Positions 935 to 21,254 of a stretch of 29,702 nucleotides of DNA are shown here, piece by piece. Below the pieces are notes generated by a model. It was not told where the DNA came from. It saw only the letters and a program-made list of their open reading frames with translations, and did not search any database. Within the stretch, counting starts at the first letter, position 1, and each line of letters opens with the position of its first letter. Both the position numbers and the translations under genes were made by a program. Source of the DNA: Candidatus Thorarchaeota archaeon (lineage in GTDB: Archaea > Asgardarchaeota > Thorarchaeia > Thorarchaeales > Thorarchaeaceae); assembly GCA_011364905.1 (NCBI GenBank), contig RDNZ01000035.1:1-29702 (forward strand), read 5' to 3'.

Positions 935-1630
935 ATGCCGATCTCATTAGTTGAACAGATCATTAGAGAGCTTCAAAGACTAAGTAAGAGTGAGCGGAAG
1001 CAAAAAATTGCTGAGTATTTGAAAACATCTTCGCTGGATTTCATGGGAGTTGAGCTTCCAGATATTCATAGAACGGTTAAGAACAGCATTAAAGGTTTGA
1101 AGCTGGAGGATTTGCCTAGATTCATGGAAGAACTCTGGAGTAAGAGAATCTTCGAGGTCAGACTCGCTGCGATTGATGTTTTGAAGGTTTATGCAAAGAA
1201 AGGTTCTCTTGAAGTCGCGATGAAACTGGCTGACAAATGGGTGGGTGAAGGAGACACCTGGGGGATTATCGATCCTTTATGCTCTCCCACAATCGGTTCA
1301 ATGATACTACGAGACCCTAACATAGAAACAACACTGAAATCTTGGCAAACGTCAGAAAACTTCTGGAGAAGGAGGGCTTCCGTTCTGCCCTTTCTATATC
1401 TAGCATTGAAAACTCAGTATGTACCTGAATTCAACAATCGGATTCTCCGCGCAGTCACTCCTCATATATCTGATGAAGAATTCTTTGTAGCTAAGTCTGC
1501 AGGCTGGGTACTTCGAGAGCTGAGCAAAAGAGACCCCAAAATTGTGGAGGAATACTTCAAGGAGAACCGCAAGAAAATGTCCAAGCTAGTCATACGCGAA
1601 GGTTCGAAGAAACTGAAGTCAGCACGCTAG
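935..1630 (+). CDS. AlkD-like DNA alkylation repair protein (HEAT-like repeat glycosylase family)
   Basis: FMGV..P, ELW...FEVRLAA, TWGIID, W..SENFWRRRAS, DEEFFVAKSAGWVLRE..K motifs typical of the DNA_alkylation family. Confidence 0.88.
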   Translation: MPISLVEQIIRELQRLSKSERKQKIAEYLKTSSLDFMGVELPDIHRTVKNSIKGLKLEDLPRFMEELWSKRIFEVRLAAIDVLKVYAKKGSLEVAMKLADKWVGEGDTWGIIDPLCSPTIGSMILRDPNIETTLKSWQTSENFWRRRASVLPFLYLALKTQYVPEFNNRILRAVTPHISDEEFFVAKSAGWVLRELSKRDPKIVEEYFKENRKKMSKLVIREGSKKLKSAR

Positions 1631-2836
1631 TTGTTTAACGATTTTCCTTTTGGCCGATTTGGGACTAACGTTTTCAACTGTAATGCTTTCTACTTGATGA
1701 TACTTACCGAAATCCTTGAAGCCTTGAACTGCTCTCTCCAATCCATCTTTTTCTTTCCAGAAGTCGTTCTCAAGATATAGTGAAATCAGATTCATCCTGT
1801 TTTCATTTCTGTGGACTTTTACATCTACTCTTCCAACAAGGTTGAAACCATCAAGAAGAGGAAGAACATGATATCCATACACACGTTTGATCGCCGGAAC
1901 ATATGATTCCAATTTGTAATCGAAATTCCAAATGTTTAGAGGGTAGTGTCGCTCGCGTATAATATTGTCGAATGGGCTTAACAGTTTCACGGGTTCACCA
2001 GACACATCTATGTTATCATTCATCAATTGTTTGACGTTTTTGCTCAGTATATAGTATTGTTCGCTAACTCCTTCTATGGAAACCTGCTCGAGGAATCCCT
2101 CACCTACGAGCTCTTCCAAATAGTCATTGATCTTTCCTCTTGAATTCTTCCAAAGAAACTGAGCTGGCCAACGTCCCAAGTAGGTACGAATATCCTGATA
2201 GTTCCCAAGACCAAGAGACCCAAGCGTTGCTTGAATTGTAAACTGAGCAAGCTCCGAATCACTCATTGGTGTGGTTTCAGTAGTAGTAGGGAGCACCCTT
2301 TCTGTCAGATCATAGAATTTCTGAAAATTCTCTCTGAATGCTATCATTATTTGACCGGTGTAGTGAAGATATTGCATCGACCTGCTTTCAATGGATCCTC
2401 CCCATCCGAGACTCTCCCCCTTGAAATCGGAGCTAGAAGTCGCACCATTCTTTTTGATATGTTCATAGATTTCTCTGATTGTGTCTTTCATCTTCTCCCC
2501 GAATCTCTGAAAATATCCTTTGCTTTCCCTTCGGACCTGTTCCATTTTTCTCACATAAAACGGATAGGTTTCAATAGGGAGCAAGCATAATGAATGGGAC
2601 CAGTATTCGAAAAGTTTGCCTTTCTTGAGATCTTTCCATACATCTCTCTCTTGATACCTCGGGTATCTGTTGTAGATGATTAGATTGTGGCTTCTAGAAA
2701 CTACTGACATGGTATCTATTTGGATACTGTGAATCCTTCTTGCGACACTCAAAGCTGACTTACAGAGTTTTTGAGTCCTCAGTCCTTGAACATCAAGGAT
2801 GAATCCCCTGGCTTTTTCACTAGAAACCTCAATCAT
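1619..2836 (-). CDS. YcaQ/AlkZ (HTH_42) family interstrand-crosslink DNA glycosylase
   Basis: IQIDTMSVVSRSH (QxD motif), LFEYWSH, FQKFYDLTERVLP, LLSPFDN, FDYKLESYVPA.KR.YGY.VLPLL, GRVD.K. Confidence 0.9.
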   Translation of the reverse strand: MIEVSSEKARGFILDVQGLRTQKLCKSALSVARRIHSIQIDTMSVVSRSHNLIIYNRYPRYQERDVWKDLKKGKLFEYWSHSLCLLPIETYPFYVRKMEQVRRESKGYFQRFGEKMKDTIREIYEHIKKNGATSSSDFKGESLGWGGSIESRSMQYLHYTGQIMIAFRENFQKFYDLTERVLPTTTETTPMSDSELAQFTIQATLGSLGLGNYQDIRTYLGRWPAQFLWKNSRGKINDYLEELVGEGFLEQVSIEGVSEQYYILSKNVKQLMNDNIDVSGEPVKLLSPFDNIIRERHYPLNIWNFDYKLESYVPAIKRVYGYHVLPLLDGFNLVGRVDVKVHRNENRMNLISLYLENDFWKEKDGLERAVQGFKDFGKYHQVESITVENVSPKSAKRKIVKQLAC

Positions 2837-3571: not shown

Positions 3572-4099
3572 CTATTGCCAGTGAATCCTTTCGCAATCAT
3601 ATTCACGAATTGCCCTGCTTAACTCTCCAATGTGCCACATGCTATGTCTCATTGTGTAGAGAATCTTTGCAAGACGGGATGGTTGCCATTCTGAAAAGCC
3701 ATCAGTTTTCACCATGTCACCATAGCTGAGTGAATGAAGTTTCTCCTTAAGTTGCTGTTTGGTTTCCTCGAGGTAGGTAAGCATCTCCTTCTTTGTTATG
3801 CGTGCTGCAGTTTCCTCTGGACTCTCCTCTTTCCACTTAATACCTCCAATTCTTGCGCCCCACTTCATCACTTTTGGATCGTCGTTACCATAGAATTCAA
3901 CAGTTTCAATAATGTGGAAAACCCTTTCTGAAAAGTACCAGACATTCTCTCCTTTCGTCTGATTCCATGGCTTGGTAATCGCATCTAACCCCACCGACCA
4001 CTTCTCATCAGGCACATTTTCGATAGATGCTTTGAGCATATTCCAAACAGACTCAAATTGATCCACTAGATGATTTGCGATTGCGTTTTGTTCTTCCAA
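3572..4099 (-). CDS. DinB/YfiT-like four-helix bundle protein
   Basis: L...IENVPDEKW, FHIIET, and C-terminal RHSMWHIGEL giving the His triad. GGAGG upstream of the TTG start. Confidence 0.8.
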   Translation of the reverse strand: MEEQNAIANHLVDQFESVWNMLKASIENVPDEKWSVGLDAITKPWNQTKGENVWYFSERVFHIIETVEFYGNDDPKVMKWGARIGGIKWKEESPEETAARITKKEMLTYLEETKQQLKEKLHSLSYGDMVKTDGFSEWQPSRLAKILYTMRHSMWHIGELSRAIREYDCERIHWQ

Positions 4100-4177: not shown

Positions 4178-5215
4178 CTAGAAGCGTTTTGTTGTCTTTG
4201 GATAGGGCGAGAATTTTCTCCTTTGTTTTGTGGTGATCCAATCTGTTGAATCATCAATATTCCTTAAAGACCTCAAGATATCGAAGGAAATCCATCTTGA
4301 CGCCTTTGGATGTGGTGCGTAATCCCAGAGTCCATACTCGCCTTGTTGGTCAAGAGTCCATTTGATCAGCTCCTTCACTCTGGGATCTGAGCGATTGGCG
4401 CCTACTCTCGAGCACAGGTCAAGTAGCAAAGCGGGATCGAATTTGGCATGATAGGTGAGTACACCACGATGCGGCTCAATGCCAATGTATCTTGCTACAT
4501 TGAATCCAAGATTGTTACGGTCTCGTGTTTCTCTTCCCAGAAGGTGATCCAATGCCTGACGAGCTTCTGTGCTATGCTTTCTTTTCGGATGATGTGCGAA
4601 ACACATCAAAGATTGAGTTGTGTTCGTTCTGCATCCCCACTTCGAGCGAGATAACCTCCTATATCCTGCGATGCCAACAAACACATCATTGACTTTTCCC
4701 GCTGGCCAGGTGCCATCCTCTAAACGCTTGTCAACTAGCCACTCGAATGCCCGTTCGGAGCGCGCGTCCTCTGCATAACCACACATTGCTAGACCCAGAA
4801 GTGGAACCGAGGTTTGCACTGGCGACATGGTATAGGGCCCTCGCGTGTATTCGAAGTCTGAAACTCTCTCAGGTAGTGGCCATGAACCATCCTTTCTCTG
4901 CTTGGAAAACAGATATTTTGCACCCCTCTTGATGGCATTATGATTTCTATCTATTCCAAGATAACCTAGACGCATCAATGCCGCTGTTGTAGCCCTGATA
5001 GATCCACCAATAGTGTAACCTGCCTGGTCGAGCTCTTTCCAGTTTCCACCATCTCTCTGCAGGTTTATGAGGTCTGATACCAGTGAATCCCTTGATCTAG
5101 AAGCTGCAAGTTCTTGCACCTCTTGTTCATCTGCGTCTTGGCCCATGAGCTGTGTGAGCACAAGATAGCGAAGATTAGGTGACCTGTCTGCAAGTAAAAG
5201 TGGAATCCAGGTCAT
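4178..5215 (-). CDS. Prenyltransferase/squalene-cyclase-repeat (alpha/alpha toroid) protein
   Basis: QW-type repeats LQRDGGNW, KQRKDGSW, KRLEDGTW, QQGEYGLW. Start overlaps the upstream UvrA stop (ATGA, 5212-5215). Confidence 0.8.
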   Translation of the reverse strand: MTWIPLLLADRSPNLRYLVLTQLMGQDADEQEVQELAASRSRDSLVSDLINLQRDGGNWKELDQAGYTIGGSIRATTAALMRLGYLGIDRNHNAIKRGAKYLFSKQRKDGSWPLPERVSDFEYTRGPYTMSPVQTSVPLLGLAMCGYAEDARSERAFEWLVDKRLEDGTWPAGKVNDVFVGIAGYRRLSRSKWGCRTNTTQSLMCFAHHPKRKHSTEARQALDHLLGRETRDRNNLGFNVARYIGIEPHRGVLTYHAKFDPALLLDLCSRVGANRSDPRVKELIKWTLDQQGEYGLWDYAPHPKASRWISFDILRSLRNIDDSTDWITTKQRRKFSPYPKTTKRF

Positions 5216-8200
5216 GGCATCTCCTCCAAGATTTCATTGATATACGGTGCTGTTGGGGTTTCAAGGTCCTTTATCTCGTATGGACTGCCTTCTGCGATAA
5301 CAGAACCTCCCCCAGGACCTCCTTTTGGTCCAAGCTCAATCAACCAATCACAGGCAGCCAGAACATGAGGGTGATGCTCAATCACAAAAACACTATTTCC
5401 AGCTGCAACCAACCTCTGAAGAACATCAATCAAACGTCTGACATCCTCCAGATGTTGCCCCACCGTGGGTTCATCTAGAATATAGAGTGTTCCTCTCGTA
5501 GACTTCTTCATCAATTCTTGTGTGATCTTTAATCGCTGAATTTCTCCTCCAGAGAGAGTCCAAGTTGGTTGCTTTAGAACAAGATAGCCAAGACCAACAT
5601 CCAGAGCTGGGCGAAGTCTTCTCTCTATGCGTTCATCATCCTTGAATAGATTGTGAATCTCACTCAATGTGAGACTGTTCAATTCAGGTAGTGAATAGCC
5701 CTTCATTCTCACATCCCATGCTTCGGGGGAGCGACCACTTCCTGCGCAGGTTTCGCAGGGTGTAAAAACCGCAGGAAGAAACCCGAGGTCCGTTCGTAGA
5801 TACCCTGCTCCCTCGCAAATGGAACAAGGCTGTGACAGTTTCTTTTTGTTGAGTCCAAGTGAAACTGCATCCTCGCTCTCAGCAAAGACATCAACCAATG
5901 AATCGAGCAGACCCAAAGCTTGTCCCGGCGAGCGAAGTCCTTTTCGTGCTTGATCAAGAACGACGACCCGCTCTGGCGCATTCGTGATGCTATCGTACTC
6001 CTCTGGCTGAGTTTCCTCATATGCAATACTGGTTGTGAATTTCTTCGGTGCCATTGCTCGAGCGAGTGTGTCAATAAGCAATGTGCTCTTTCCAGAACCA
6101 GACACCCCGCAGAATCCAACCAAAACGCCTAGGGGAATTTCAAGATTTACGTTTTGCAAGTTGTTTCCTCTAGCCCCAACAATCTTCATCCAGGCAATAG
6201 GCGTTCGTGGTGCGTCAGAGAACTGGAACTTACTTTCACCTCGCAACCATCTCCCTGTGACTGAGTTGCATTTGGCAACATCTATGGGAGAACCTACTGT
6301 GACAATCTTTCCTCCTGCTGTCCCTGCCCCAGGGCCCATATCAATCAGTTCATCTGCGGCTTTGATGATGCTCAAATCATGCTCGACAACGATGGGTGTA
6401 TTGCCCTCTTCCTTGAGTTCCCGAAGGGCCTCAATCAGACTATCTACTTCTGATGGGTGCATGCCTCGGGATGGTTCATCAAGCAGAATTGTCAGTGAAG
6501 TCAGGCCGCTGCCCAGCAAGCTTGAAAGAATGACTCTTTGCGCCTCACCGGCAGATAGCGACAATGCTGGACGGTTGAGATGTATATAACCGAGTCCGAC
6601 CTGCTCTAGAAACTTCAGGCGTTTCAAGATAGTTTCAAGATTTGAGGAAGTGAAGTATGCGTCTGTCTCAGGAACCTTGAGGTTTCTGAGGATCTCTCTT
6701 AGTTCAGAGATAGACTTGTCCTTTAACTCGTGGACGTTATAACCCAGAATTGTGAAGGCAAGGTACTCTTCCTTGAGACCCGTTCCTTTACAACTGCTAC
6801 AGGTGACTCGATTAGTGAAGGTCTGTCCCACGTCCCACTCATTTACAAGTTTATAGAATCCCCACCAAGCCTGTCTGCCAGTGATTCTGGTCCTCTCTCC
6901 TCTCCGTGTGCCCAGGTATGAAAACTCGAGCTTCTCAGAGTCACCGTAGAGAAATGCCTGCTTGCCCTCCTCTGATATTTCATTCCAGGGTGTTGTTTTG
7001 GGATTGAACCCGAACTTCTCTCCAAGGGCGACAAGTAATCCAGCTGCCGCACTTTTGGGATCACAGAAGTATTTCCCTGGATAGTATCCTGGAGAGTACA
7101 TTGCACCTTGACACAAGGCTTTCTCAGGAGCAATGATAAGCTTCTCGGGGGCTGGTATGTTTTTCGTGCCAACACCACTGCACTCGCTACAAGCCGCGAA
7201 GTATGTTGTTGATGAAAATGCTCTGGGACTTACCAGAGGTTTGACTGACCTGCATTTGGGACATGACCATTTCTCATTACGAATCATTTTTGTCCCACAG
7301 TCAATGCAGGTCCGTTCTGCAACAGTAGCATACAGAACATTAAGTTGGTTCGATATCTCAGTGACGGTCCCAATATTGGAACGACTTTGATAGACAGCAT
7401 ACCATCCTGATCCTCTACGTCGTCTCGATGAAATAGCCACGGACACTCCTAGACCACTCACACTGTCAACGGGTGCCTCGGGTCCCTCACTCGTACCCTG
7501 TCGCTCGTAAACAGAGAGCGACTCCAGAAATCTTCTGTCAGCTTCTGCTTGGAGCACATCCCTCACAAGAGAGGACTTCCCAGATCCTGATATGCCTGTG
7601 ACTACTGTGAGTTTGCCTTTCTTGATGTCTACATTGACCGACTTCAGATTATTCGCTCTAGCATTTCTGATGGATATCTTGTCTGCGAGTGTGTTTGTCT
7701 TCTTTGGTTTCTTATTGGGTATCACGTTTTCCTCATTCTCAAGGGCATTAGCGGTGAGTGAATTGGCAGTTGCATGGATTCCTGAGACCGGTCCACAGTA
7801 GAGCACTTCCCCGCCTTCCGGTCCTCCAAGAGGCCCCAGATCCATAATCCAGTCTGCTGACTTGATGATGTCAGTATTGTGTTCAACAACAACAATCGTT
7901 GCTCCTTCTTTAACGAGCTTGTCAAGCACGGACAGAAATCCAAAAAGATCGCTTGGATGAAGCCCTGTTGATGGCTCGTCGAGGATCAATAGCTTTGAAG
8001 ACAGTGATTTTCTTCCCAGATACTTTGCGAGCTTGACTCTCTGAGCTTCGCCTCCCGAAAGGCTTGGGGAGCTCTGACCAAGTTTCAGATAGCCAAGACC
8101 GATTGTGACAAGGGCATCCAGGATGTTATGTGCCGATTTCCTCTTACTCTCAGGGAGTCTAGTATCTCCTGATAGAATTGAGTGCACCTCGGCAATGGAG

Positions 8201-10101
8201 AGATTGTAAAAGTCCGCGATAGAGAGGTGTCTATCGCCAAATTCAATCCTGTTCTGCAGAACCTCTTCCTTGAATCTCTGGCTTTCACAGTCGGAGCACA
8301 TTATCCAAATCGAAGGGAGATATCGCATTTTTACTTCAACAGCTCCCATGCCTTTACAGGTGGGACAAGCTCCCTCAGGACGATTGAACGAGAAATGAGA
8401 TGCTGAAAGCCCTGTTTCCGAAGAATAGAGGTCTCTCACGATATCTGACAACTTCGTGTAGGTTCCCGGATTGGATCTCGGATTCTTGCCAATAGGCTTT
8501 TGGTCCACAATAACGGGTTTCAGCTGCTTTCCTTCAAATGCTCTGCAACCTATCGGCTTCCCCTTCTGCAGGGTGGGTACAAGCACATGCTGAACAAGAG
8601 TGCTCTTTCCTGAACCACTTACTCCTGTAACCACTGAGAACCTTTTCAATGGAAACTTAACTTCAATGTCTTTCAGGTTATGTTTGTTTGCTCCAAGAAT
8701 CTTGAAGAACTCAGTAGGCTGCTTGTGAGACTCAAGACTTGGCACTCGCTTTCGAAAGCTGAAGTAATGCCCGGTTGTCGTGTCTGTGTTCCACAGTTCG
8801 TAGGGTGTTCCTGAAAAGACGATTTCTCCACCAAGGTCTCCTGCTTTTGGACCAATGTCAATTGCTCTATCTGCCTGAGCAGCTGCTACCCTATCGTGTT
8901 CTACAAAGATCACCGGCCCCAAGAGCTTTCTGAATGCCGGCATCAAACGTACAACATCGGCTGGGTGTTGCCCTATGGTCGGCTCATCGAGCACATGCAC
9001 AATGTCTTCCAACCTGCTGGTCAGAGAAACAGCGAGCCGGACTCTTTGTGACTCCCCTCTCGAGAGGGTGGGAGAAGAACGGTCCAACTGAATGTAACCA
9101 AGTCCAACAGTCACTAAGGCATCAAGCCTGCGAGAGATCTCAGTCTTCAACCTCCTAGCTGTCGAGGGAAATTCTGCTTCTTTGAACTTCTTGTGAGCCT
9201 CATCAACTGTAAGCGACATCAATGATGGGAATGTCAAGCCCTCCCACTTGATTGCTGCCGCGAGATGGTGTAGTCCTGTGTCATTACATTTTTGACAGCC
9301 TTTGCCTCCACAGTGAATACACTTTATTCCAAAATGTTTTGGCTCAACGGTCCCAAACCAAGTTCCACACTTGGAACATACGTTACTCAAAGAGAGGTCT
9401 CGGGCCGAATTGCTAGATTGGACTCTGATGGAGCTCGAGCCTAAAGAGTAGGCTGTGCGTACAGCGTCCCTGATTTCGGAGGTTTTGGACTTTGCATTCA
9501 GTTCTGCGATCCACACTGAGATGTCATGTGGGCTCTTTGCGGCCAAATCTCTCTGATCCCAAGGCGCGTTATCAACCACGATATGACTGATACCGAATTC
9601 TGACACAAGCAATTCCAGGAGTGTCCTATGACTACCCTTTGTTGCTTGTAGAAGTGTTGCAGAGATCCTCACAACACCCTTCTTCATCTTCTTTTTGATG
9701 AGAGTGACAATCTCGTCCTCCGTAAGTACCTGAAGGCTCGCACCGCAATTCAGACAATAACGAGTCCCGAACCTAGCAAAGAGTAGCCTAAAGAATGGGT
9801 GCAAACCCGATGCTGACGCCAGAGTTGATAGAGGATTAAGATTGAGTAGATTTTGACCCACGGCGATGATCGGACCAACGCCTGTGACCGAACGAACGTT
9901 AGCTGGAGGCATTCGTGTCCTCGGACTGCTCGATCGAAATACATCCAAGAACCTTCTTTGAGCCTCATGGTAAAGGGTGTCAAAAACGAGCGATGTCTTT
10001 CCCGACCCGCTTATGCCCGTGACGACAGTGAGTCCATCAACTATGTCGACATCCACTGATTTGAGATTATTCTCACGGGCACCACGGATTCGGATATCCA
10101 T
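5212..10101 (-). CDS. uvrA: Tandem-fused double UvrA-like ABC ATPase (four nucleotide-binding domains)
   Basis: Four GA..NNL openers, four Walker A (GISGSGKT, GVSGSGKS, GISGSGKS, GVSGSGKS), four signatures (LSRGE, LSGGE, LSAGE, LSGGE), four LDEP Walker B, many CxxC Zn modules, FSFNRPEGACPTC. Confidence 0.92.
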   Translation of the reverse strand: MDIRIRGARENNLKSVDVDIVDGLTVVTGISGSGKTSLVFDTLYHEAQRRFLDVFRSSSPRTRMPPANVRSVTGVGPIIAVGQNLLNLNPLSTLASASGLHPFFRLLFARFGTRYCLNCGASLQVLTEDEIVTLIKKKMKKGVVRISATLLQATKGSHRTLLELLVSEFGISHIVVDNAPWDQRDLAAKSPHDISVWIAELNAKSKTSEIRDAVRTAYSLGSSSIRVQSSNSARDLSLSNVCSKCGTWFGTVEPKHFGIKCIHCGGKGCQKCNDTGLHHLAAAIKWEGLTFPSLMSLTVDEAHKKFKEAEFPSTARRLKTEISRRLDALVTVGLGYIQLDRSSPTLSRGESQRVRLAVSLTSRLEDIVHVLDEPTIGQHPADVVRLMPAFRKLLGPVIFVEHDRVAAAQADRAIDIGPKAGDLGGEIVFSGTPYELWNTDTTTGHYFSFRKRVPSLESHKQPTEFFKILGANKHNLKDIEVKFPLKRFSVVTGVSGSGKSTLVQHVLVPTLQKGKPIGCRAFEGKQLKPVIVDQKPIGKNPRSNPGTYTKLSDIVRDLYSSETGLSASHFSFNRPEGACPTCKGMGAVEVKMRYLPSIWIMCSDCESQRFKEEVLQNRIEFGDRHLSIADFYNLSIAEVHSILSGDTRLPESKRKSAHNILDALVTIGLGYLKLGQSSPSLSGGEAQRVKLAKYLGRKSLSSKLLILDEPSTGLHPSDLFGFLSVLDKLVKEGATIVVVEHNTDIIKSADWIMDLGPLGGPEGGEVLYCGPVSGIHATANSLTANALENEENVIPNKKPKKTNTLADKISIRNARANNLKSVNVDIKKGKLTVVTGISGSGKSSLVRDVLQAEADRRFLESLSVYERQGTSEGPEAPVDSVSGLGVSVAISSRRRRGSGWYAVYQSRSNIGTVTEISNQLNVLYATVAERTCIDCGTKMIRNEKWSCPKCRSVKPLVSPRAFSSTTYFAACSECSGVGTKNIPAPEKLIIAPEKALCQGAMYSPGYYPGKYFCDPKSAAAGLLVALGEKFGFNPKTTPWNEISEEGKQAFLYGDSEKLEFSYLGTRRGERTRITGRQAWWGFYKLVNEWDVGQTFTNRVTCSSCKGTGLKEEYLAFTILGYNVHELKDKSISELREILRNLKVPETDAYFTSSNLETILKRLKFLEQVGLGYIHLNRPALSLSAGEAQRVILSSLLGSGLTSLTILLDEPSRGMHPSEVDSLIEALRELKEEGNTPIVVEHDLSIIKAADELIDMGPGAGTAGGKIVTVGSPIDVAKCNSVTGRWLRGESKFQFSDAPRTPIAWMKIVGARGNNLQNVNLEIPLGVLVGFCGVSGSGKSTLLIDTLARAMAPKKFTTSIAYEETQPEEYDSITNAPERVVVLDQARKGLRSPGQALGLLDSLVDVFAESEDAVSLGLNKKKLSQPCSICEGAGYLRTDLGFLPAVFTPCETCAGSGRSPEAWDVRMKGYSLPELNSLTLSEIHNLFKDDERIERRLRPALDVGLGYLVLKQPTWTLSGGEIQRLKITQELMKKSTRGTLYILDEPTVGQHLEDVRRLIDVLQRLVAAGNSVFVIEHHPHVLAACDWLIELGPKGGPGGGSVIAEGSPYEIKDLETPTAPYINEILEEMP

Positions 10102-11711: not shown

Positions 11712-12350
11712 TTGCCTACAAAAACCACCACTGCGGAACCAAATGCTGAGGAGAGAAACAACGTGCGCGACCAAGATGATGGCAGCAAAATAATGAAAGC
11801 AGTCCTCATAGGGGACGGGTCTGTCGGCAAGACAAGCATCCGCAGAAATTACTTAGGCGAGGACTTTATCGAGGGACATCTTGCTACAATAGGTGTTGAC
11901 CTAGCCACTAAGCGGGTTCTTTTTGAGCAGGATGTTGTGAAGTTCATAATTTGGGACCTTGCTGGCCAGCCAACCTTCGAGAAAGTCCGAGGGCACTACT
12001 ATAGTGGCTGCAATGGGATTCTACTGGTCTACTCAGTCGTTGATCGTAGCTCATTTGACAATGCGAGCAAATGGCTGGTTGAAGCGTACAAGAACATGGG
12101 TCCTTTGCCACCTACTGTCATTATTGGTAACAAGATTGATATTCGACAGTCCCTCGATCAGAAGAAGTATGTAACCCCTGAAGAAGGCCAGGCTTTTACT
12201 GAATACTTCATCAAGAAACTAGAGGTTCCAGCAATCTTCAGAGAAACCTCTGCGAAGACAGGCGCGAACATACAGGATACTTTCCATGAACTTCTCCGTA
12301 TGATGAGCGAGGCTCAAAACGGTAAGAACAACGACTTCTACATGCCTTAG
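11712..12350 (+). CDS. Rab-like small GTPase (Ras superfamily)
   Basis: G1 GDGSVGKT, ATIGVD, G3 WDLAGQ, G4 NKID, G5 TSAK. No C-terminal prenylation cysteines. Confidence 0.93.
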   Translation: MPTKTTTAEPNAEERNNVRDQDDGSKIMKAVLIGDGSVGKTSIRRNYLGEDFIEGHLATIGVDLATKRVLFEQDVVKFIIWDLAGQPTFEKVRGHYYSGCNGILLVYSVVDRSSFDNASKWLVEAYKNMGPLPPTVIIGNKIDIRQSLDQKKYVTPEEGQAFTEYFIKKLEVPAIFRETSAKTGANIQDTFHELLRMMSEAQNGKNNDFYMP

Positions 12351-12470: not shown

Positions 12471-12935
12471 GTGAGTAAATCTGCTGAATCCGAATCAAAA
12501 CAGGTGTCTGACCTACAGGATATCCTGTCCGACTTCTCACAGTTCTATATTGTCCTGCTGTTGAGTGAAGGTCCTATTCACGGTTACGGGATGATTAGGG
12601 CATACAAACAACGTACAGGAAAGCCGCTTAGCGCTGGAACTCTCTACCCTTTCTTACAGAGTCTCGAATCAAAGGGATTTGTTGAGAAGAAGGATAAGTC
12701 CACTGGTAAAAGACCAAAGATCGTGTATTCATTGACAAGAAAAGGCAAGGGTTTCTGCGACAGGCTGTTCAAACGATTCGCTACAATAACAGTATCAGCT
12801 TTGGAACCAAGTCTGGAGACCTGCGCTAGCTGCGGTGCTAAGGTGTACGAAGGAGCTCACCATGAGACTATCGATGGTGTAGAGTTGGCTTTCTGTTGTG
12901 TACACTGCGCCAAGGCTTTCAAAGAGGGTCTCTGA
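12471..12935 (+). CDS. PadR-family regulator with C-terminal TRASH metal-binding domain (putative copper regulator)
   Basis: LLLSEGPIHGYGMI, LSAGTLYPFLQSLE.KG.V, RPKIVYSLT.KG (PadR). CASCG...FCCVHC (TRASH). Directly upstream of copA. Confidence 0.88.
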   Translation: MSKSAESESKQVSDLQDILSDFSQFYIVLLLSEGPIHGYGMIRAYKQRTGKPLSAGTLYPFLQSLESKGFVEKKDKSTGKRPKIVYSLTRKGKGFCDRLFKRFATITVSALEPSLETCASCGAKVYEGAHHETIDGVELAFCCVHCAKAFKEGL

Positions 12936-12972
12936 GACAACTGATTGAAGTCGTACCCAAGACCCAAGATTT

Positions 12973-13020
12973 ATATATCGACATGGATATATCTTAAGAT
13001 ATATATCGACACAGATATAT
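12973..13020. promoter_or_regulatory. Tandem candidate operators upstream of copA
   Basis: ATATATC-gacatg-GATATAT (12973-12992) and ATATATC-gacaca-GATATAT (13001-13020), 28-bp period, bridged by the perfect palindrome ATATATCTTAAGATATAT (12987-13004). Confidence 0.75.
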
Positions 13021-13057
13021 TTACAAGAAACGCTTCGAAAGTGCCATTAGGAGCTGA

Positions 13058-15874
13058 ATGGAAATGAACAAGGAACAGACTAGCACACAATCATCGCGAA
13101 TGTCGATAAACATAGAAGGAATGCATTGTGCTTCTTGCGTATCTACAATTGAACATGCATTGCAAAACGAAGATGGAGTCATCAATGTATCAGTGAGTCT
13201 TTTGGATGAGAAAGCTGTTGTTGAGTATGATTCTTCACGAGTTGATAGACCTAGTCTGGAGCGTGCTGTCGACTCAAGCGGTTACCGAGCAAAGAGATCA
13301 TCAATGTCAATGTGCATCTCCGGAGCAGAGACTAATGATGACTGGAACAGGATTTCGCAAGCATTATCCGAGCAACAGGGTGTCATCTCGGTCAATACAT
13401 TCCCAGATAGGAATAAGCTGTTCATTGAATATGACCAAGACCTTCTGACCTACAAGATTGTTAAGAAAACTATCCGTGAGCTTGGCTTTGAACCAGCCGA
13501 GGCTGAAGGCATAGAGAGTGACAGAGAAACCCTTGCGAGAGAAAAAGAGCGGCAGTATTATCTAAGACTTCTTACTCTATCAGTGATACTGACAATTCCA
13601 GTAGTACTTATTCACTTTGGTTTCTTGAATGCTATCATCACCCTGGAATCAACTCGAATGCTCATCATGTTTGTATTGGCGACTCCTGTACAATTCATCG
13701 GTGGACTTCCTTTCTATAGATCTGCACTTAGGTCTGCAAGACATCTGAAGACCAATATGGACACCTTGGTTATGTTGGGTACAAGCGCTGCTTACTTCTA
13801 TTCAGTTGCGACTACATTCGTTTTGACTGGCTATCCTTCATTCTATGATACAGCTGTTCTCTTGATTACATTCATCCTTATGGGACGCGCTCTGGAAGCC
13901 ATTGCGAAGGGTAGAACCTCTAGGGCAATAAGGAGCCTTATGGACCTCCAAGCGAAAGTGGCCATAGTTGTTAGGGACGGAGAAGAGATTACACTTCCCA
14001 TCGAAGATGTGGAGGTTGACGATATTGTTCTGGTGCGACCAGGAGACCGTGTCCCTGTTGATGGTCAAGTTCTCGAGGGTAAGTCGTCTGTTGATGAGTC
14101 GATGATCACAGGTGAACCATTACCGGTGAACAAAGAGGTTGGTGATTCGGTCGTCGGCGGTACTGTGAACAAGAATGGAATGTTACGAGTTCGTGCAGAA
14201 AAAGTGGGACAGGACACAGCGCTTTCACAAATTGTTAGGATGGTTGAAGAGGCGCAGACAAACAAGCCAGCTATTCAACGAAAGGCTGACAAAATCGCAG
14301 GAGTATTCACTCCTGTTATTCTTGTCATTGCATTGGCAACATATCTGTTTTGGGCAATTTTCATAACGATACCATGGCAAGATGCACTCAGCTTCACCAT
14401 TGCTGTCCTTGTTGCAGCATGCCCCTGCGCTCTAGGTCTGGCGACTCCAACAGCGATTATGGTGGGAATTGGCAAAGGAGCCCAATATGGAATACTCATC
14501 AAAACCGGTGATGGGCTTGAAACGATTCCGGTAATCGATACAGTGGTATTCGACAAGACAGGAACACTAACTATAGGTCGCCCGACAGTCACTGACATCT
14601 CTGTCATGTCAAATGAATCAGAGGATGAGGTTCTAAGTCTGGTCGCAGCTGTTGAGAGGAATAGTGAGCATCCTCTGGCTGAATCTATTGTCTATGAGGC
14701 AAGAGAACGAGCCGTTGATATTCCGGACTCCGAGAATTTTGTCTACACAACCGGAAAAGGTGTCAGCGCTTCTGTTAACGGAAAGAACATTCACGTTGGC
14801 AGCGATCAATTCATGCTCGAGAATGGTATTGACTTCTCGATGATGACTGACGAAATCATGTCGCTCCAAAAAGAGGGAAAGACTACAATCTTTGCAGCTA
14901 GTGGTCAAGAACCGTTAGCTGTCTTGGCTATATCAGATAAGTTGAAGGAATCGTCTGTGCAAGCCGTGAGTACCCTGAAGCATCTTGGGCTTGATGTCTG
15001 GATGATCACCGGTGATAGAGAGGAAACTGCGAAATCAATTGCAGCAACTGTCGGTATTGACAATGTTCTTGCAGAGGTACTCCCAGATGACAAGGCAGAA
15101 CAAGTCAAGAAACTTCAGAAAGAGGGTCGTACTGTCGCAATGACTGGTGATGGTGTGAATGATGCAATTGCTCTAGCTCAGGCTGACGTTGGTATAGCGT
15201 TGGGTTCTGGAACGGATGTGTCTGTCGAATCTGGCGATATAGTCCTTGTAAAGGATGACCTGTTGGATGTAGTGACAGGCATTCAGTTAGGAAAGAGCAC
15301 AATGGCTAAAATCAAGCAGGGCTTTTTCTGGGCTCTCATATACAACATAATCCTCTTGCCTATTGCAGCTGGTCTTCTATATCCTTCAACAGGGCTCGTT
15401 TTGAGACCTGAATTTGCTGGGTTGGCAATGGCCCTATCGAGTGTGAGCGTTGTCACGAATGCTCTTACTCTGAACCGCTTCAAACCAGAAAAAGCGATGC
15501 CTTCAGAGGTGACCGCGCTTCCAGCAGCATACAGGGAAGGAGATGTTGTTGTGGACCCAATATGCAAGATGAAGGTTGAAATAGCGACTGCTGAGCTTTA
15601 CAGCGACTTTGAAGGGAAGCGATATTATTTCTGCAGTCAAAACTGCAAAGACACCTTTGATGCCAATCCCGAGCAATACAAGGATGTGGACGCAGCCGAA
15701 CCCGAAGTCCCGGAGATTGCCATTGATCCTATCTGCAAGATGGATGTAGAAACGGCCACGGCAACGCTCGTCAGTGAGTATGATGGCAAGAAGTACTACT
15801 TCTGTAGTTCTCATTGCAAAGAAACCTTTGACAAGAACCCTGAGCAATACAAAAACCAAGACTTTCGAGAATAA
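13058..15874 (+). CDS. copA: Cu(I)-exporting P1B-type ATPase with two C-terminal YHS domains
   Basis: GMHCASC HMA domain, TGEP, CPC, DKTGT, SEHP, TGD, GDGVND, YN and MALSS Cu(I)-type TM motifs, two DPICKM..YYFCS..C repeats. Confidence 0.95.
15554..15850 (+). repeat. Intragenic duplication encoding two YHS domains
   Basis: Copies at 15554-15679 and 15725-15850 (171-nt period), DPICKM...NPEQY. Confidence 0.85.
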
Positions 15875-18495: not shown

Positions 18496-19401
18496 TCATG
18501 GCAGGTAGAATGTTCCCTCAGCTACAAGCCTGACCTTTCCTGAAACATGGACCTCCTCCATGCCCTTATCAGGGACCCTCACTATCAAGTTACTGGGTCT
18601 CTTTATCTCGTATCCCTGTTCGATACTGATTGGTTCTCCAAACTGATGGTTCTGCAATACGCCATGCTTCTCAAGGTATGCTCCAAGTGGACCAGCTGCG
18701 CTTCCCGTGGCTGGATCTTCAACAACTCCCACTTCTGGGGCGAACATTCGTGCATGGACATGAGAATCAGAAAACGAGGTCTCAGTTGAGAATATCAAAA
18801 CCTGCTTGGTTGAGAAACTAGATAGGTCAGTCTGAAACGCTTCAGGAATTGGAGTCGCTCGTTTTACAGTTGAAAGTGTCTTCAGCGGCACGATGATGTA
18901 GGGAAAGCCCGTTGAAACGACCTGAACAGGAAGATCAGGATCAATGTCACTCAGTTCTAATCCAATAGCCCCTGTTACTCGTGATAGATCATCAAGAGGC
19001 TTCTCGAAGACTGGCGCTGGCTGTATCATTCGAATGCTGTCGTTCTCTAAGAAATCAACACGAATGGGTCCAACTCCAAGTTGTAGCAAAGCTGTTTTCT
19101 TCCCTGATTCTAATATTCCCTTTAGCCTTAGAACAAATGCTGTTCCAAGGGTCGGATGTCCAGCAAAAGGAATCTCTGCTGCAGGTGTGAAAATGCGGAC
19201 TTTGGTAAGGCAATCTTTAGTCGTTGGCTCCATAATAAAGGTAGACTCAGAAAAGTTCATCTCAAGAGCCATTCCCTGCATTTCTTCCTTTGAAAGGTCT
19301 TGGTTTGCTTTTTTGTTCCAATATGTGGCTAGCTGATTGCCGCCGAAAGGTTGCCGGTCATCAACAAATACACTAGTTTGGACATACGGAATCTCGCGCA
19401 T
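18496..19401 (-). CDS. PhzF-family isomerase/epimerase
   Basis: PFGGNQLA, EMNFSESTF, RIFTP..EIPFAGHPTLG, ARMFAP..GV.EDPATGSA, QG.EI.RPS. Confidence 0.93.
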   Translation of the reverse strand: MREIPYVQTSVFVDDRQPFGGNQLATYWNKKANQDLSKEEMQGMALEMNFSESTFIMEPTTKDCLTKVRIFTPAAEIPFAGHPTLGTAFVLRLKGILESGKKTALLQLGVGPIRVDFLENDSIRMIQPAPVFEKPLDDLSRVTGAIGLELSDIDPDLPVQVVSTGFPYIIVPLKTLSTVKRATPIPEAFQTDLSSFSTKQVLIFSTETSFSDSHVHARMFAPEVGVVEDPATGSAAGPLGAYLEKHGVLQNHQFGEPISIEQGYEIKRPSNLIVRVPDKGMEEVHVSGKVRLVAEGTFYLP

Positions 19402-19461
19402 ACCTGAGTTGGACTCAATCTGTCTTATCCAACTTTTGGTGTGTCATCTTCGAGCACTAGA

Positions 19462-19941
19462 TTAACACTTGACCTTGTCAAGCTCGCCCTGGCAGATCTG
19501 TTTGTCTTCTTTCCCTGAAATCGCATCGATTGCCTTCTGTGCCATTTCGCTGTACTTCTTGCACTCTGCCTTATTGCCACTCACTGAATGTGCCCGAGCA
19601 AGAGCCTCGTATATGAAAGGCATATCCCAGTCCTTCCAATTTTTATCCGTCTTCTCTGCTTCTTTTGCAAGCTCGAATCCCCTGTTTGCGTGGAACATTG
19701 CAGGTTCGCTTCTTTTCATGTGTGCGTAGATTCTTGCAAGCATGTATTCAGCTCTTACTGCGTTCACAATTGTCCCAACTTTGCTCCAGTGATAACGTGC
19801 GGTATGGGCCATATGCATGGCCTCTTCCAGTTCCTCAGCTGTTGGGTTTTCTTTGTCAAGAGTTGGCCATATCCCATTATTAGTTTGAGCTGCTATTTTT
19901 CTATGAAATTCCTTCAGAGTCATTTTTTCTTTATCTGGCAA
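19462..19941 (-). CDS. Hypothetical all-helical (TPR-like) protein
   Basis: FHRKIAA..NN..W, AHTARYHW..VG, R.EY.LARIYA, YEALARA pattern of a widespread uncharacterised family. Confidence 0.8.
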   Translation of the reverse strand: MPDKEKMTLKEFHRKIAAQTNNGIWPTLDKENPTAEELEEAMHMAHTARYHWSKVGTIVNAVRAEYMLARIYAHMKRSEPAMFHANRGFELAKEAEKTDKNWKDWDMPFIYEALARAHSVSGNKAECKKYSEMAQKAIDAISGKEDKQICQGELDKVKC

Positions 19942-20165
19942 TGAATATCTCTCCCTTACTCATTTCAAACATACAATCAAATAAAAATTTAACTATTGTT
20001 ATCTTTTGCTGTCAGATTTGCATAGTAACATGTTGTGACCCTATTTTGTGACACTGCTTTATATACCAGAAGTGCGTGATTTTAGATAGAAAGACACAAC
20101 GCAAACGGCTTAAGTGAGCATGCCGCTGATAAAAGCCAAAGCGTTGAATTTTGAGGTTTAAATAA

Positions 20166-21254
20166 ATGACACCAACTGACGACGATGTTACTCCACCTCC
20201 AGACGATATGCCTGAGGACGTCGAGGATGTGGAGGATGAGATTGAGAGGGAACCCGAGCCTCACAGAAGGAGGGGCCACACTCGACGTAGAAGGTCAAAG
20301 CTCCGAGAGTACAGCTCAATGGGTAGCTTCATAGCTTGGATGGCCTTTCTAGTTGTATGGTTGTTCTTTTTCGCAGGTAGCTACGGACTCTTCGAAAACA
20401 TAGCTGTTGTATTGATAGCTCTCCTGGTCGTGTTTGCTGCGAATGCTGTGCTCTGGATCCCACTTGATCAGGGCTGGAAAGCTCGGTCAAGTGCCATTAG
20501 TGCCTTCATCTGGTTTGCGTTTCTGATTCTGTGGATCTTCTTCTTTGCAGCAGACTTTGGAATCTATGAGAACATAGGAATTGGTATCGCATCTCTCTTG
20601 ATAATAGGTGCAGTCAATGTTGTTCTTTGGGTTCCATCTGCAGGAGAAGGACGTGGATCTCGAGTGAGTGCACTTGGCGGCATTGGATGGTTAACATTCA
20701 TGGTCTTATGGCTTCCATTCGCCAACGATTTCGCACTCATCTACCCGATTAATGGATATCAGAATATGGCCATAATTCTTGCTTCATTCTTATTGATGCT
20801 GCTTGTGGTGACATTCCCCTGGCGTTCAGAAATCTCCATTGGCATAGATGCGACGCCTGGTGTATCCATAAGAGCAAAAGGCAGTCTAGCTGGATTCCTG
20901 CTTTATCTCGTATTCTTGGTAATATGGATGTGGGCTTTCGCCTCCGGATTCTCAGCTAATCAAAATGTTGCAACGATTCTAGTATCATTTGCCATTTTTG
21001 CTGCGATCATGGTAGGCGCATGGTTGCCCTGGTCCCGTCGCAGAGGTGAAGGACCAGAGAACTGGTGGGCTATTGGATTGGCCTTTGTTTGGGTCATTGC
21101 ACTGTCAATCTGGTTCTGGTTCTTTGCAGACTCATTTAATGCATATCAAAACTTTGCTGTCTTCCTTGTTTCCTTAATGGCAATAGTTGCGATTAGTGGC
21201 GGTGCTCAGTGGAAGAAAATCCGCGACTTTGAGTCCTTGGACTGGGATGACTAA
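20166..21254 (+). CDS. Polytopic membrane protein made of five TM-hairpin repeats
   Basis: Five copies of approximately W..F...W..(F)FA..F..(Y)[EQ]N.[AG]. Acidic then Arg-rich soluble N-terminus. Confidence 0.85.
   Translation: MTPTDDDVTPPPDDMPEDVEDVEDEIEREPEPHRRRGHTRRRRSKLREYSSMGSFIAWMAFLVVWLFFFAGSYGLFENIAVVLIALLVVFAANAVLWIPLDQGWKARSSAISAFIWFAFLILWIFFFAADFGIYENIGIGIASLLIIGAVNVVLWVPSAGEGRGSRVSALGGIGWLTFMVLWLPFANDFALIYPINGYQNMAIILASFLLMLLVVTFPWRSEISIGIDATPGVSIRAKGSLAGFLLYLVFLVIWMWAFASGFSANQNVATILVSFAIFAAIMVGAWLPWSRRRGEGPENWWAIGLAFVWVIALSIWFWFFADSFNAYQNFAVFLVSLMAIVAISGGAQWKKIRDFESLDWDD

Follow-up and report, generated by a model that had tools for sequence, protein, structure and literature searches.

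The 29,702-nucleotide contig RDNZ01000035.1 of a Candidatus Thorarchaeota archaeon (GenBank assembly GCA_011364905.1), analyzed here over its full length and referred to as the window, encodes a double-length UvrA protein whose two fused units have each lost a different accessory domain, followed directly by a gene for a predicted alpha/alpha-toroid protein. The explanation that we favor, with a probability of roughly 0.6, is that both genes make up an accessory lesion-sensing module independent of UvrB and UvrC, consisting of a single-chain, permanently asymmetric UvrA "dimer" and the toroid protein coupled to it. Within the UvrA family, the architecture and the partner in this two-gene module are new: a search of the accessible literature recovered no description of a UvrA with reciprocal or one-sided domain loss, nor of a toroid partner, the only related mention being that of fused UvrAs in Planctomycetes (PMC8567305).

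The double UvrA (P0001, 1629 aa) is the translation of the open reading frame (ORF) at 5212-10101 on the minus strand, where the toroid gene also lies. It matches the TIGR00630/NF001503 models in pieces and consists of four ABC ATPase modules and six zinc modules. Walker A motifs occur at residues 29, 493, 836 and 1332, and are accompanied by four LSxGE signatures and four LDEP Walker B motifs, so that the tandem ABC modules typical of the UvrA superfamily (Walker A, signature, Walker B and H-loop) are present as four complete sets. Likewise, twelve CxxC motifs (24 cysteines) supply the three Cys4 zinc modules per unit that characterize the superfamily. The original prediction, made from the sequence of the window alone, had placed the junction of two fused UvrA units near position 7680, and this is where the second unit begins, with the residues KISIRNAR (aa 808, position 7680). 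Unit 1 spans aa 1-785 (7747-10101) and unit 2 aa 808-1629 (5215-7680), separated by a linker of 22 residues (aa 786-807, 7681-7746).

The spacing of the zinc ligands reveals which accessory domains each unit retains. In unit 1, 122 residues separate the two halves of zinc module 1 (C116/C242), corresponding to a UvrB-binding-type domain (aa 120-241, 9379-9744), while zinc module 2 (C261/C269; CIHCGGKGCQKC) is reduced to a minimal form with just 4 aa between its halves (C261, C264, C269 and C272, 9286-9321) at the place where the insertion domain would be. Unit 2 displays the opposite arrangement: its zinc module 1 (C932/C947) is minimal, with 11 aa where the UvrB-binding domain would be (C932, C935, C947 and C950, 7252-7308), and its zinc module 2 (C971/C1101) encloses 126 residues, including TPWNEISEEGKQAFLYG (6993-6943), that correspond to the insertion, or DNA-binding, domain (aa 975-1100, 6802-7179). 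Zinc module 3 is found in both units (C579/C602 and C1426/C1449). In agreement, the Pfam models for the UvrB-binding domain (UvrA_inter) and the insertion domain (UvrA_DNA-bind) match the double UvrA only once each, at aa 127-229 and aa 988-1070, respectively. Phmmer comparisons with UvrAs of known structure gave the same picture, unit 1 aligning with residues 24-285 and 426-943 of Bacillus stearothermophilus UvrA (2r6f), skipping its insertion domain, and unit 2 with residues 3-127 and 236-901 of Thermotoga maritima UvrA (3pih), skipping its UvrB-binding domain. The earlier claim that the halves keep different domain sets, one with the UvrB-binding-type segment and the other with the insertion domain, is therefore borne out by both approaches. 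Both retained domains are diverged, the docking-type domain strongly so: PF17760 scores 32 bits in the double UvrA versus 125 and 95 bits in the two canonical UvrAs of the same genome, and PF17755 scores 23.8 bits versus 82 and 58 bits.

Asymmetry between the units extends beyond the loss of whole domains. According to a recent study of the UvrA dimer by cryo-electron microscopy, the two protomers meet at their ATP-binding-I domains, through contacts that include R54-L507, Y55-Y55, F66-F66 and those of G80, L81 and P83, and a wedge composed of Y62, Q65 and F66 enters the helix as a probe (PMC12796330). These sites were mapped onto both units by alignment with the two canonical UvrAs of the genome. 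Interface residues are kept in unit 1 (R50, F51, G74 and P77) as well as in unit 2 (R857, F858, S861, G883 and L884). The wedge is recognizable only in unit 2, as a remnant with the sequence SLSVYERQG (aa 861-869, 7495-7521) that corresponds to S58 to F66 of Ct-UvrA; the tyrosine and glutamine (Y865 and Q868) are kept, the equivalent of F66 is a glycine (G869), and this pattern is conserved in the family. In unit 1 the wedge is gone, RSSSPR standing in its place together with a 2-residue deletion. Conversely, the PIGxxPRSNP motif and the FSFN hairpin of zinc module 3 are canonical in unit 1 (within 7747-10101) and degenerate in the second nucleotide-binding domain of unit 2 (within 5215-7680), where they bear deletions of 3 and 5 residues, respectively. 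A wedge confined to unit 2 and canonical PIGRTPRSNP and zinc module 3 motifs confined to unit 1 represent a pattern of sub-functionalization, as expected of mutually obligate partners.

The reciprocal architecture is not a peculiarity of this contig. The best 120 homologues are 55-92% identical to the double UvrA over its full length, nearly all of them with 1615-1690 aa, and their named sources include Thorarchaeota, Promethearchaeota, Lokiarchaeota, Bathyarchaeota, Chloroflexi and Anaerolineae. The twelve CxxC motifs recur at the same spacings (126, 19, 8, 310, 23, 330, 15, 24, 128, 325 and 23) in 117 of 121 proteins, the four exceptions being truncated or having one extra cysteine, and the reciprocal domain architecture was recovered in 117 of the 121 homologues with profile hidden Markov models (HMMs) built here for each domain. 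This conservation rules out that the fusion is an assembly artefact, an explanation that the original prediction had left room for. Throughout an alignment of 123 members, all four ATPase sites have conserved motifs (Walker A, signature, Walker B and H-loop) and none of the 24 cysteines that bind zinc varies, including those of the two "empty" zinc modules. The linker is variable in sequence and constant in length (about 20-25 aa) across the family. The insertion domain has a majority fraction of 0.65, higher than that of the docking-type domain, and 27 of its positions are near-invariant (conserved to at least 95%) among the members.

Units 1 and 2 are 34% identical to each other in their cores (30-40% across the family), less than the 39-40% that each shares with the canonical UvrAs of the genome over the core. 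In a FastTree phylogeny of 118 unit cores, from which the accessory domains had been removed, the unit-1 and unit-2 sequences form two clades on long stems, each with a support of 100 (a FastTree value, to be read with caution) and with matching inner branching, and pairwise distances computed for one half correlate with those for the other (r = 0.91). These results indicate that the fusion arose once and that the halves diverged together thereafter. A tree of the two halves had been proposed in order to relate them to the known UvrA classes; the one obtained separates them from each other without resolving their deeper placement. The reciprocal-type double UvrA is, by these sequence comparisons, a monophyletic and widespread family. 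The proposal of a built-in heterodimer, with one docking-type and one insertion domain per chain, is likewise well supported by sequence logic across the family, with the exception of its assumption that the docking partner is UvrB, which is probably wrong or unnecessary, as discussed below.

The second gene of the module (4178-5215) encodes a protein of 345 aa (P0122). Its ATG overlaps the TGA stop codon of the double uvrA by 4 bp (ATGA, 5212-5215; GAGGAGATGCCATGACC), with a GGAGG sequence 8 nt upstream of the ATG. The gene was found 3' of the double uvrA in all eight loci traced through homologous proteins, with identities as low as 38%, and directly 3' of it in 47 of 47 assessable loci, 40 of which are from different Asgard genomes; an NTGA stop/start overlap occurs in 40 of these 47. 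The same order holds in 62 of 72 named genome loci, and in nine of the remaining ten the uvrA is located slightly farther upstream. Coupling between the two genes is near-obligate. At three representatives of other double-UvrA architectures, this neighbor is absent. A 315-aa ORF located 3' of a double UvrA with two docking-only units was considered as a possible toroid and turned out to be unrelated. Also, the only fused form of the toroid recovered, a 741-aa protein on a contig of 2.8 kb, is most simply read as a frameshift across the 4-bp overlap and provides no Rosetta-stone evidence.

The toroid protein matches repeats of squalene-hopene cyclase (SHC), both in Pfam (PF13243) and, in profile comparisons, over residues 496-613 of SHC (E = 8.5e-19). 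Its predicted structure is a single (alpha/alpha)6 barrel (pLDDT 86.6, pTM 0.89), with generic structural neighbors such as TED domains, SHC and glycoside hydrolases (Z 10-15); VIA-align gave Z values of 14-15 against both the C5 TE domain and SHC. It shares the (alpha/alpha)6 barrel and QW-like repeats, of which it has three, with its closest relatives, the class II terpene cyclases (SHC, MstE) and the TED domains of complement and alpha-2-macroglobulin proteins. Unlike these, it has no DxDD motif (a search of P0122 for D.DD was negative) and bears instead its own family-invariant motifs, GYRR...WGCRTNTT (aa 184-200) and RETRDR (aa 228-233), together with a basic C-terminal tail (aa 326-345) that ends in RF or RY; it is also set apart by being encoded next to a uvrA gene. 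Cys195 and Asn198, at positions i and i+3, recall the CGEQ thioester spacing of TED domains, which can be taken as a lead only. In a PADLOC analysis the toroid matched no defense-system model and the UvrA halves matched generic ABC-ATPase models only.

A survey of 185,579 species genomes yielded 223 stretches with relatives. The named hosts, all of them represented by metagenome-assembled genomes and with no cultured organism among the 80 named loci listed, are Thor-, Hermod-, Heimdall- and Hodarchaeota, Bathyarchaeia, Anaerolineae/Chloroflexia/Thermoflexales, Zixibacteria and Aminicenantes. The toroid gene is patchily distributed, being present in 73 of 301 Asgard genomes and in 7 of 24 genomes of the genus from which the window derives, as expected of an accessory system. 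One copy, in a genome of the Thorarchaeota family (L038, G155:C4:230744-246678), seems to be decaying: its unit-2 match is partial (423 bits), its uvrA frame ends 255 nt before the toroid gene, and there is an in-frame TGA in the toroid match.

Neither uvrB (best score 34 bits) nor uvrC (best score 28 bits) was found in five toroid-bearing Bathyarchaeia genomes. Three of these (G306, the closed Bathyarchaeota chromosome CP070683.1, G307 and G308) have the double uvrA as a single uninterrupted frame of 1634-1669 aa; in G301 (CP070784.1) and G302 it occurs only as shorter frames, which may reflect decay or assembly errors. Since the module persists intact in genomes lacking uvrB and uvrC, it most likely does not depend on UvrB and UvrC, and the sole docking-type domain therefore probably serves a partner other than UvrB. 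The assumption of the original prediction that this domain docks UvrB probably does not hold for these Bathyarchaeia. From the sequence evidence, the toroid is a better candidate for this role, given its presumed 1:1 synthesis by coupled translation and its near-invariable coupling to the double uvrA.

In the Thorarchaeota genome itself, canonical nucleotide excision repair (NER) genes are encoded elsewhere. On contig 47 (C47:20988-34041), uvrB is followed by two full-length uvrA genes that adjoin each other and, a few kb further on, by uvrC. Both canonical UvrAs have the complete domain set and are 57% identical to each other in the core. The existence of this separate cluster indicates that the double UvrA is an extra paralogue and not the housekeeping sensor. 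In a TIGR00630 search of the genome, the canonical paralogues scored 1340 and 1274 bits, while the pieces of the double UvrA scored 545, 485, 150 and 102 bits, each below the cut-off of 729.8; the whole 1629-aa chain passes this cut-off only by summing its two units. As a separate observation, the tandem canonical UvrAs of contig 47 could form a heterodimer of their own.

Compared with known systems, the double UvrA shares with Class I UvrAs, the canonical damage sensors of NER (TIGR00630/NF001503; 2r6f, 3pih, 3zqj and 9gxk), the plan of each unit, consisting of two ABC modules, three zinc modules and signature domains. It differs from them in having two units per chain, each accessory domain only once instead of both in every protomer, a wedge in one unit, a dedicated toroid partner gene and, in some genomes, an occurrence without uvrB or uvrC. 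Class II paralogues such as Deinococcus UvrA2, DrrC and Ecm16 resemble it in being accessory to a canonical UvrA, and unit 2 resembles them in lacking the UvrB-binding domain. Also, Ecm16 functions independently of UvrB and UvrC (PMC9328131), as the double UvrA probably does. However, class IIa UvrAs, which lack both the UvrB-binding domain and zinc module 1 (PMC9328131), are single-length proteins that form homodimers with both insertion domains, whereas the double UvrA retains the cysteines of zinc module 1 in unit 2 and a docking-type domain in unit 1, and is devoid of an insertion domain in unit 1. It thus falls outside the Class II definition (no UvrB-binding domain, no zinc module 1, insertion domain kept, single length).

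Fused UvrAs of the Planctomycetes and Chlamydia types, as well as many metagenomic families, resemble the double UvrA in their head-to-tail arrangement and in having about 340-360 aa from the second to the third Walker A motif. The double UvrA is nonetheless no member of the Chlamydia-type family, since it scores 853 bits against the NF001885 model, whose cut-off is 3054, and its residues 267-932 align to positions 397-1058 of the model, pointing to about 130 more residues in the first unit of that family. To place the reciprocal type among other fused proteins, an exhaustive search was performed with unit 1 and the best 150 cluster representatives were classified with the domain HMMs. These are almost only double-length UvrAs, which are abundant in metagenomes, and display at least seven architectures, in a sample that is biased by the query and with models that miss some domains (e.g. 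in P0277). The most frequent consists of a full unit followed by a docking-only unit (45 representatives), followed by two insertion-only units (23, plus 7 with a missed Walker motif), two full units (21), the reciprocal type described here (10, plus fragments) and a full unit followed by an insertion-only unit (5); rarer architectures account for the remaining representatives. Other one-sided domain losses are therefore common among double UvrAs, and the reciprocal loss is one architecture among several and not unique. No split form of the double UvrA was seen among these 150 representatives, the matches of 900-1045 aa carrying the start of unit 2 and looking truncated.

Downstream of the toroid gene, the window contains a DinB-superfamily-like gene (3572-4099, minus strand; weak Pfam DinB match), a gene for an AlkZ/YcaQ-like (crosslink) DNA glycosylase (1619-2836, minus strand; PF06224, E = 2.8e-41) and, on the plus strand, a gene for an AlkD-type DNA alkylation repair protein (932-1630; PF08713, E = 9e-49). 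The DinB-like gene adjoins the module only in the source genus and in near-identical named records, and the AlkZ and AlkD genes in 4 and 5 of the 47 assessable loci, respectively. The three genes recur as a set only in the genus of the source genome; AlkZ alone occurs 3' of the toroid gene in one other genus (L033/L078). In the closed Thorarchaeota chromosome CP070761.1 (L011), a gene for a Nei/Fpg-type glycosylase lies 92 nt upstream of the module. At this same locus (4204-7909 and 18794-20500), the module is also preceded by an ATP-dependent DNA ligase gene and followed, at a distance of 6 kb, by a gene for an XPB-type helicase. Adduct glycosylases are recurrent but non-obligate neighbors, which supports a role in DNA damage, as far as gene context can tell, and leaves the substrate unfixed; AlkZ/YcaQ, AlkD and Nei as neighbors would suggest bulky, alkylating or crosslinking adducts. 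On the other side of the module, the window contains a gene for a Ras-family small GTPase (11712-12350; PF00071, E = 1e-40), a family typical of Asgard archaea, and, at 12471-15874, a PadR-TRASH regulator gene followed by a gene for a CopA-type P-type ATPase with HMA and YHS domains.

Taken as an accessory sensor, the double UvrA would work as an internal counterpart of the UvrA2 homodimer, its two units pairing through the ATP-binding-I domains, an arrangement that the retained interface residues (R50, F51, G74 and P77 in unit 1; R857, F858, G883 and L884 in unit 2) and the linker of about 22 aa make plausible. The chain may then scan DNA using ATP, with the single wedge of unit 2 probing the helix and the single insertion domain clamping the DNA. 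The directional mechanism that the original prediction deduced from this layout is hypothetical. The toroid would be made in a 1:1 ratio by coupled translation and be recruited by the single docking-type domain, to act either as a reader of the lesion or a ligand or as an effector. A farther-reaching version, which we put forward tentatively and consider possible at best, is that Asgard archaea, Bathyarchaeia and Chloroflexota share a self-contained damage pathway that needs neither UvrB nor UvrC, in which the hard-wired asymmetric UvrA sensor delivers lesions to a barrel effector that replaces UvrB on the docking domain. Such an effector might be a new lesion-verifying or lesion-processing enzyme, acting for example on a flipped-out adducted base in its cavity.

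Several observations weigh against the accessory module as proposed. Of all folded regions of the family, the docking-type domain shows the lowest conservation (majority fraction 0.52), contrary to what one would expect if it were a dedicated interface. The toroid has no recognizable catalytic motif and its generic fold matches give no functional assignment. The glycosylase neighbors are lineage-specific. An orphan full-length canonical uvrA in G306 (CP070683.1, C1:133955-136774; 1152 bits) demonstrates that UvrA genes can persist in a genome lacking uvrB. Finally, uvrB is present in 66 of the 73 module-bearing Asgard genomes, a count that by itself favors neither side, and the module may cooperate with UvrB where both occur. 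The double UvrA could accordingly be an alternative UvrB loader for special lesions, handing DNA to the single UvrB of the genome via its one docking domain in an A2B1-type complex, with the toroid in an accessory or regulatory role. Besides the presence of uvrB in this and most other Asgard hosts, the residual match of the unit 1 domain to PF17760 and the mention of a UvrA2:UvrB complex (PMC12796330) speak for such a loader. We nevertheless consider it unlikely, given the intact double uvrA and toroid genes in three Bathyarchaeia genomes without uvrB and uvrC (and a split copy in two more), a PF17760 score of about a third or less of that in the canonical paralogues, and the deletions that unit 2 bears in signature II, the part of the other protomer on which UvrB has its second contact.

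A function without UvrB and UvrC would also suit a drug or genotoxin resistance ATPase resembling the Class II proteins DrrC and Ecm16 (PMC9328131), which would strip DNA-bound small molecules without excision while the terpene-cyclase-like cavity of the toroid captures the released hydrophobic compound. The relationship of the toroid to squalene-hopene cyclase repeats fits this idea, as does the proximity in some lineages of AlkZ and AlkD, known as glycosylases of genotoxin self-resistance. Yet the docking-type domain and zinc module 1, missing from class IIa proteins (PMC9328131), are kept, the window holds no biosynthetic gene cluster, the toroid lacks DxDD so that ligand binding by it is a supposition, and the hosts are uncultured sediment anaerobes, making a resistance function rather doubtful. 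A different objection concerns the pairing of the units, which is predicted here from sequence: with R54/F55-type interface residues in both units, either pairing is chemically possible, and two chains could associate head to head or swapped into a symmetric particle with two docking and two insertion domains. This arrangement appears improbable in view of the complementary loss of domains, wedge and zinc module 3 motifs throughout the history of the family, as an obligate intramolecular heterodimer predicts, of a linker conserved in length and not in sequence, and of a translational coupling that would supply each chain with one toroid in a 1:1 ratio, which suits a single docking-type domain. 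As fused UvrAs are the normal UvrA of Planctomycetes (PMC8567305), the double UvrA could also be conceived as the housekeeping NER protein in fused form; this is very hard to reconcile with two full-length canonical uvrA genes beside uvrB in the same genome, with a module that is patchy even within a genus, and with halves that each fall below the TIGR00630 cut-off.

Research on bacterial excision repair has long asked to what extent the symmetric UvrA2 dimer functions asymmetrically, a question that bears on the number of UvrB molecules loaded, the side of the lesion concerned and the timing of the ATP sites. The double UvrA family represents a natural, conserved "experiment" on this question, in which the halves are distinguishable, there is one docking domain, one clamp and one wedge, and the half-sites could be mutated separately. 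What is understood of DNA repair in Asgard archaea, Bathyarchaeia and Anaerolineae is almost wholly inferred, and the family draws attention to a partner that has yet to be characterized and to a route of damage response maintained in archaea without UvrB and UvrC.

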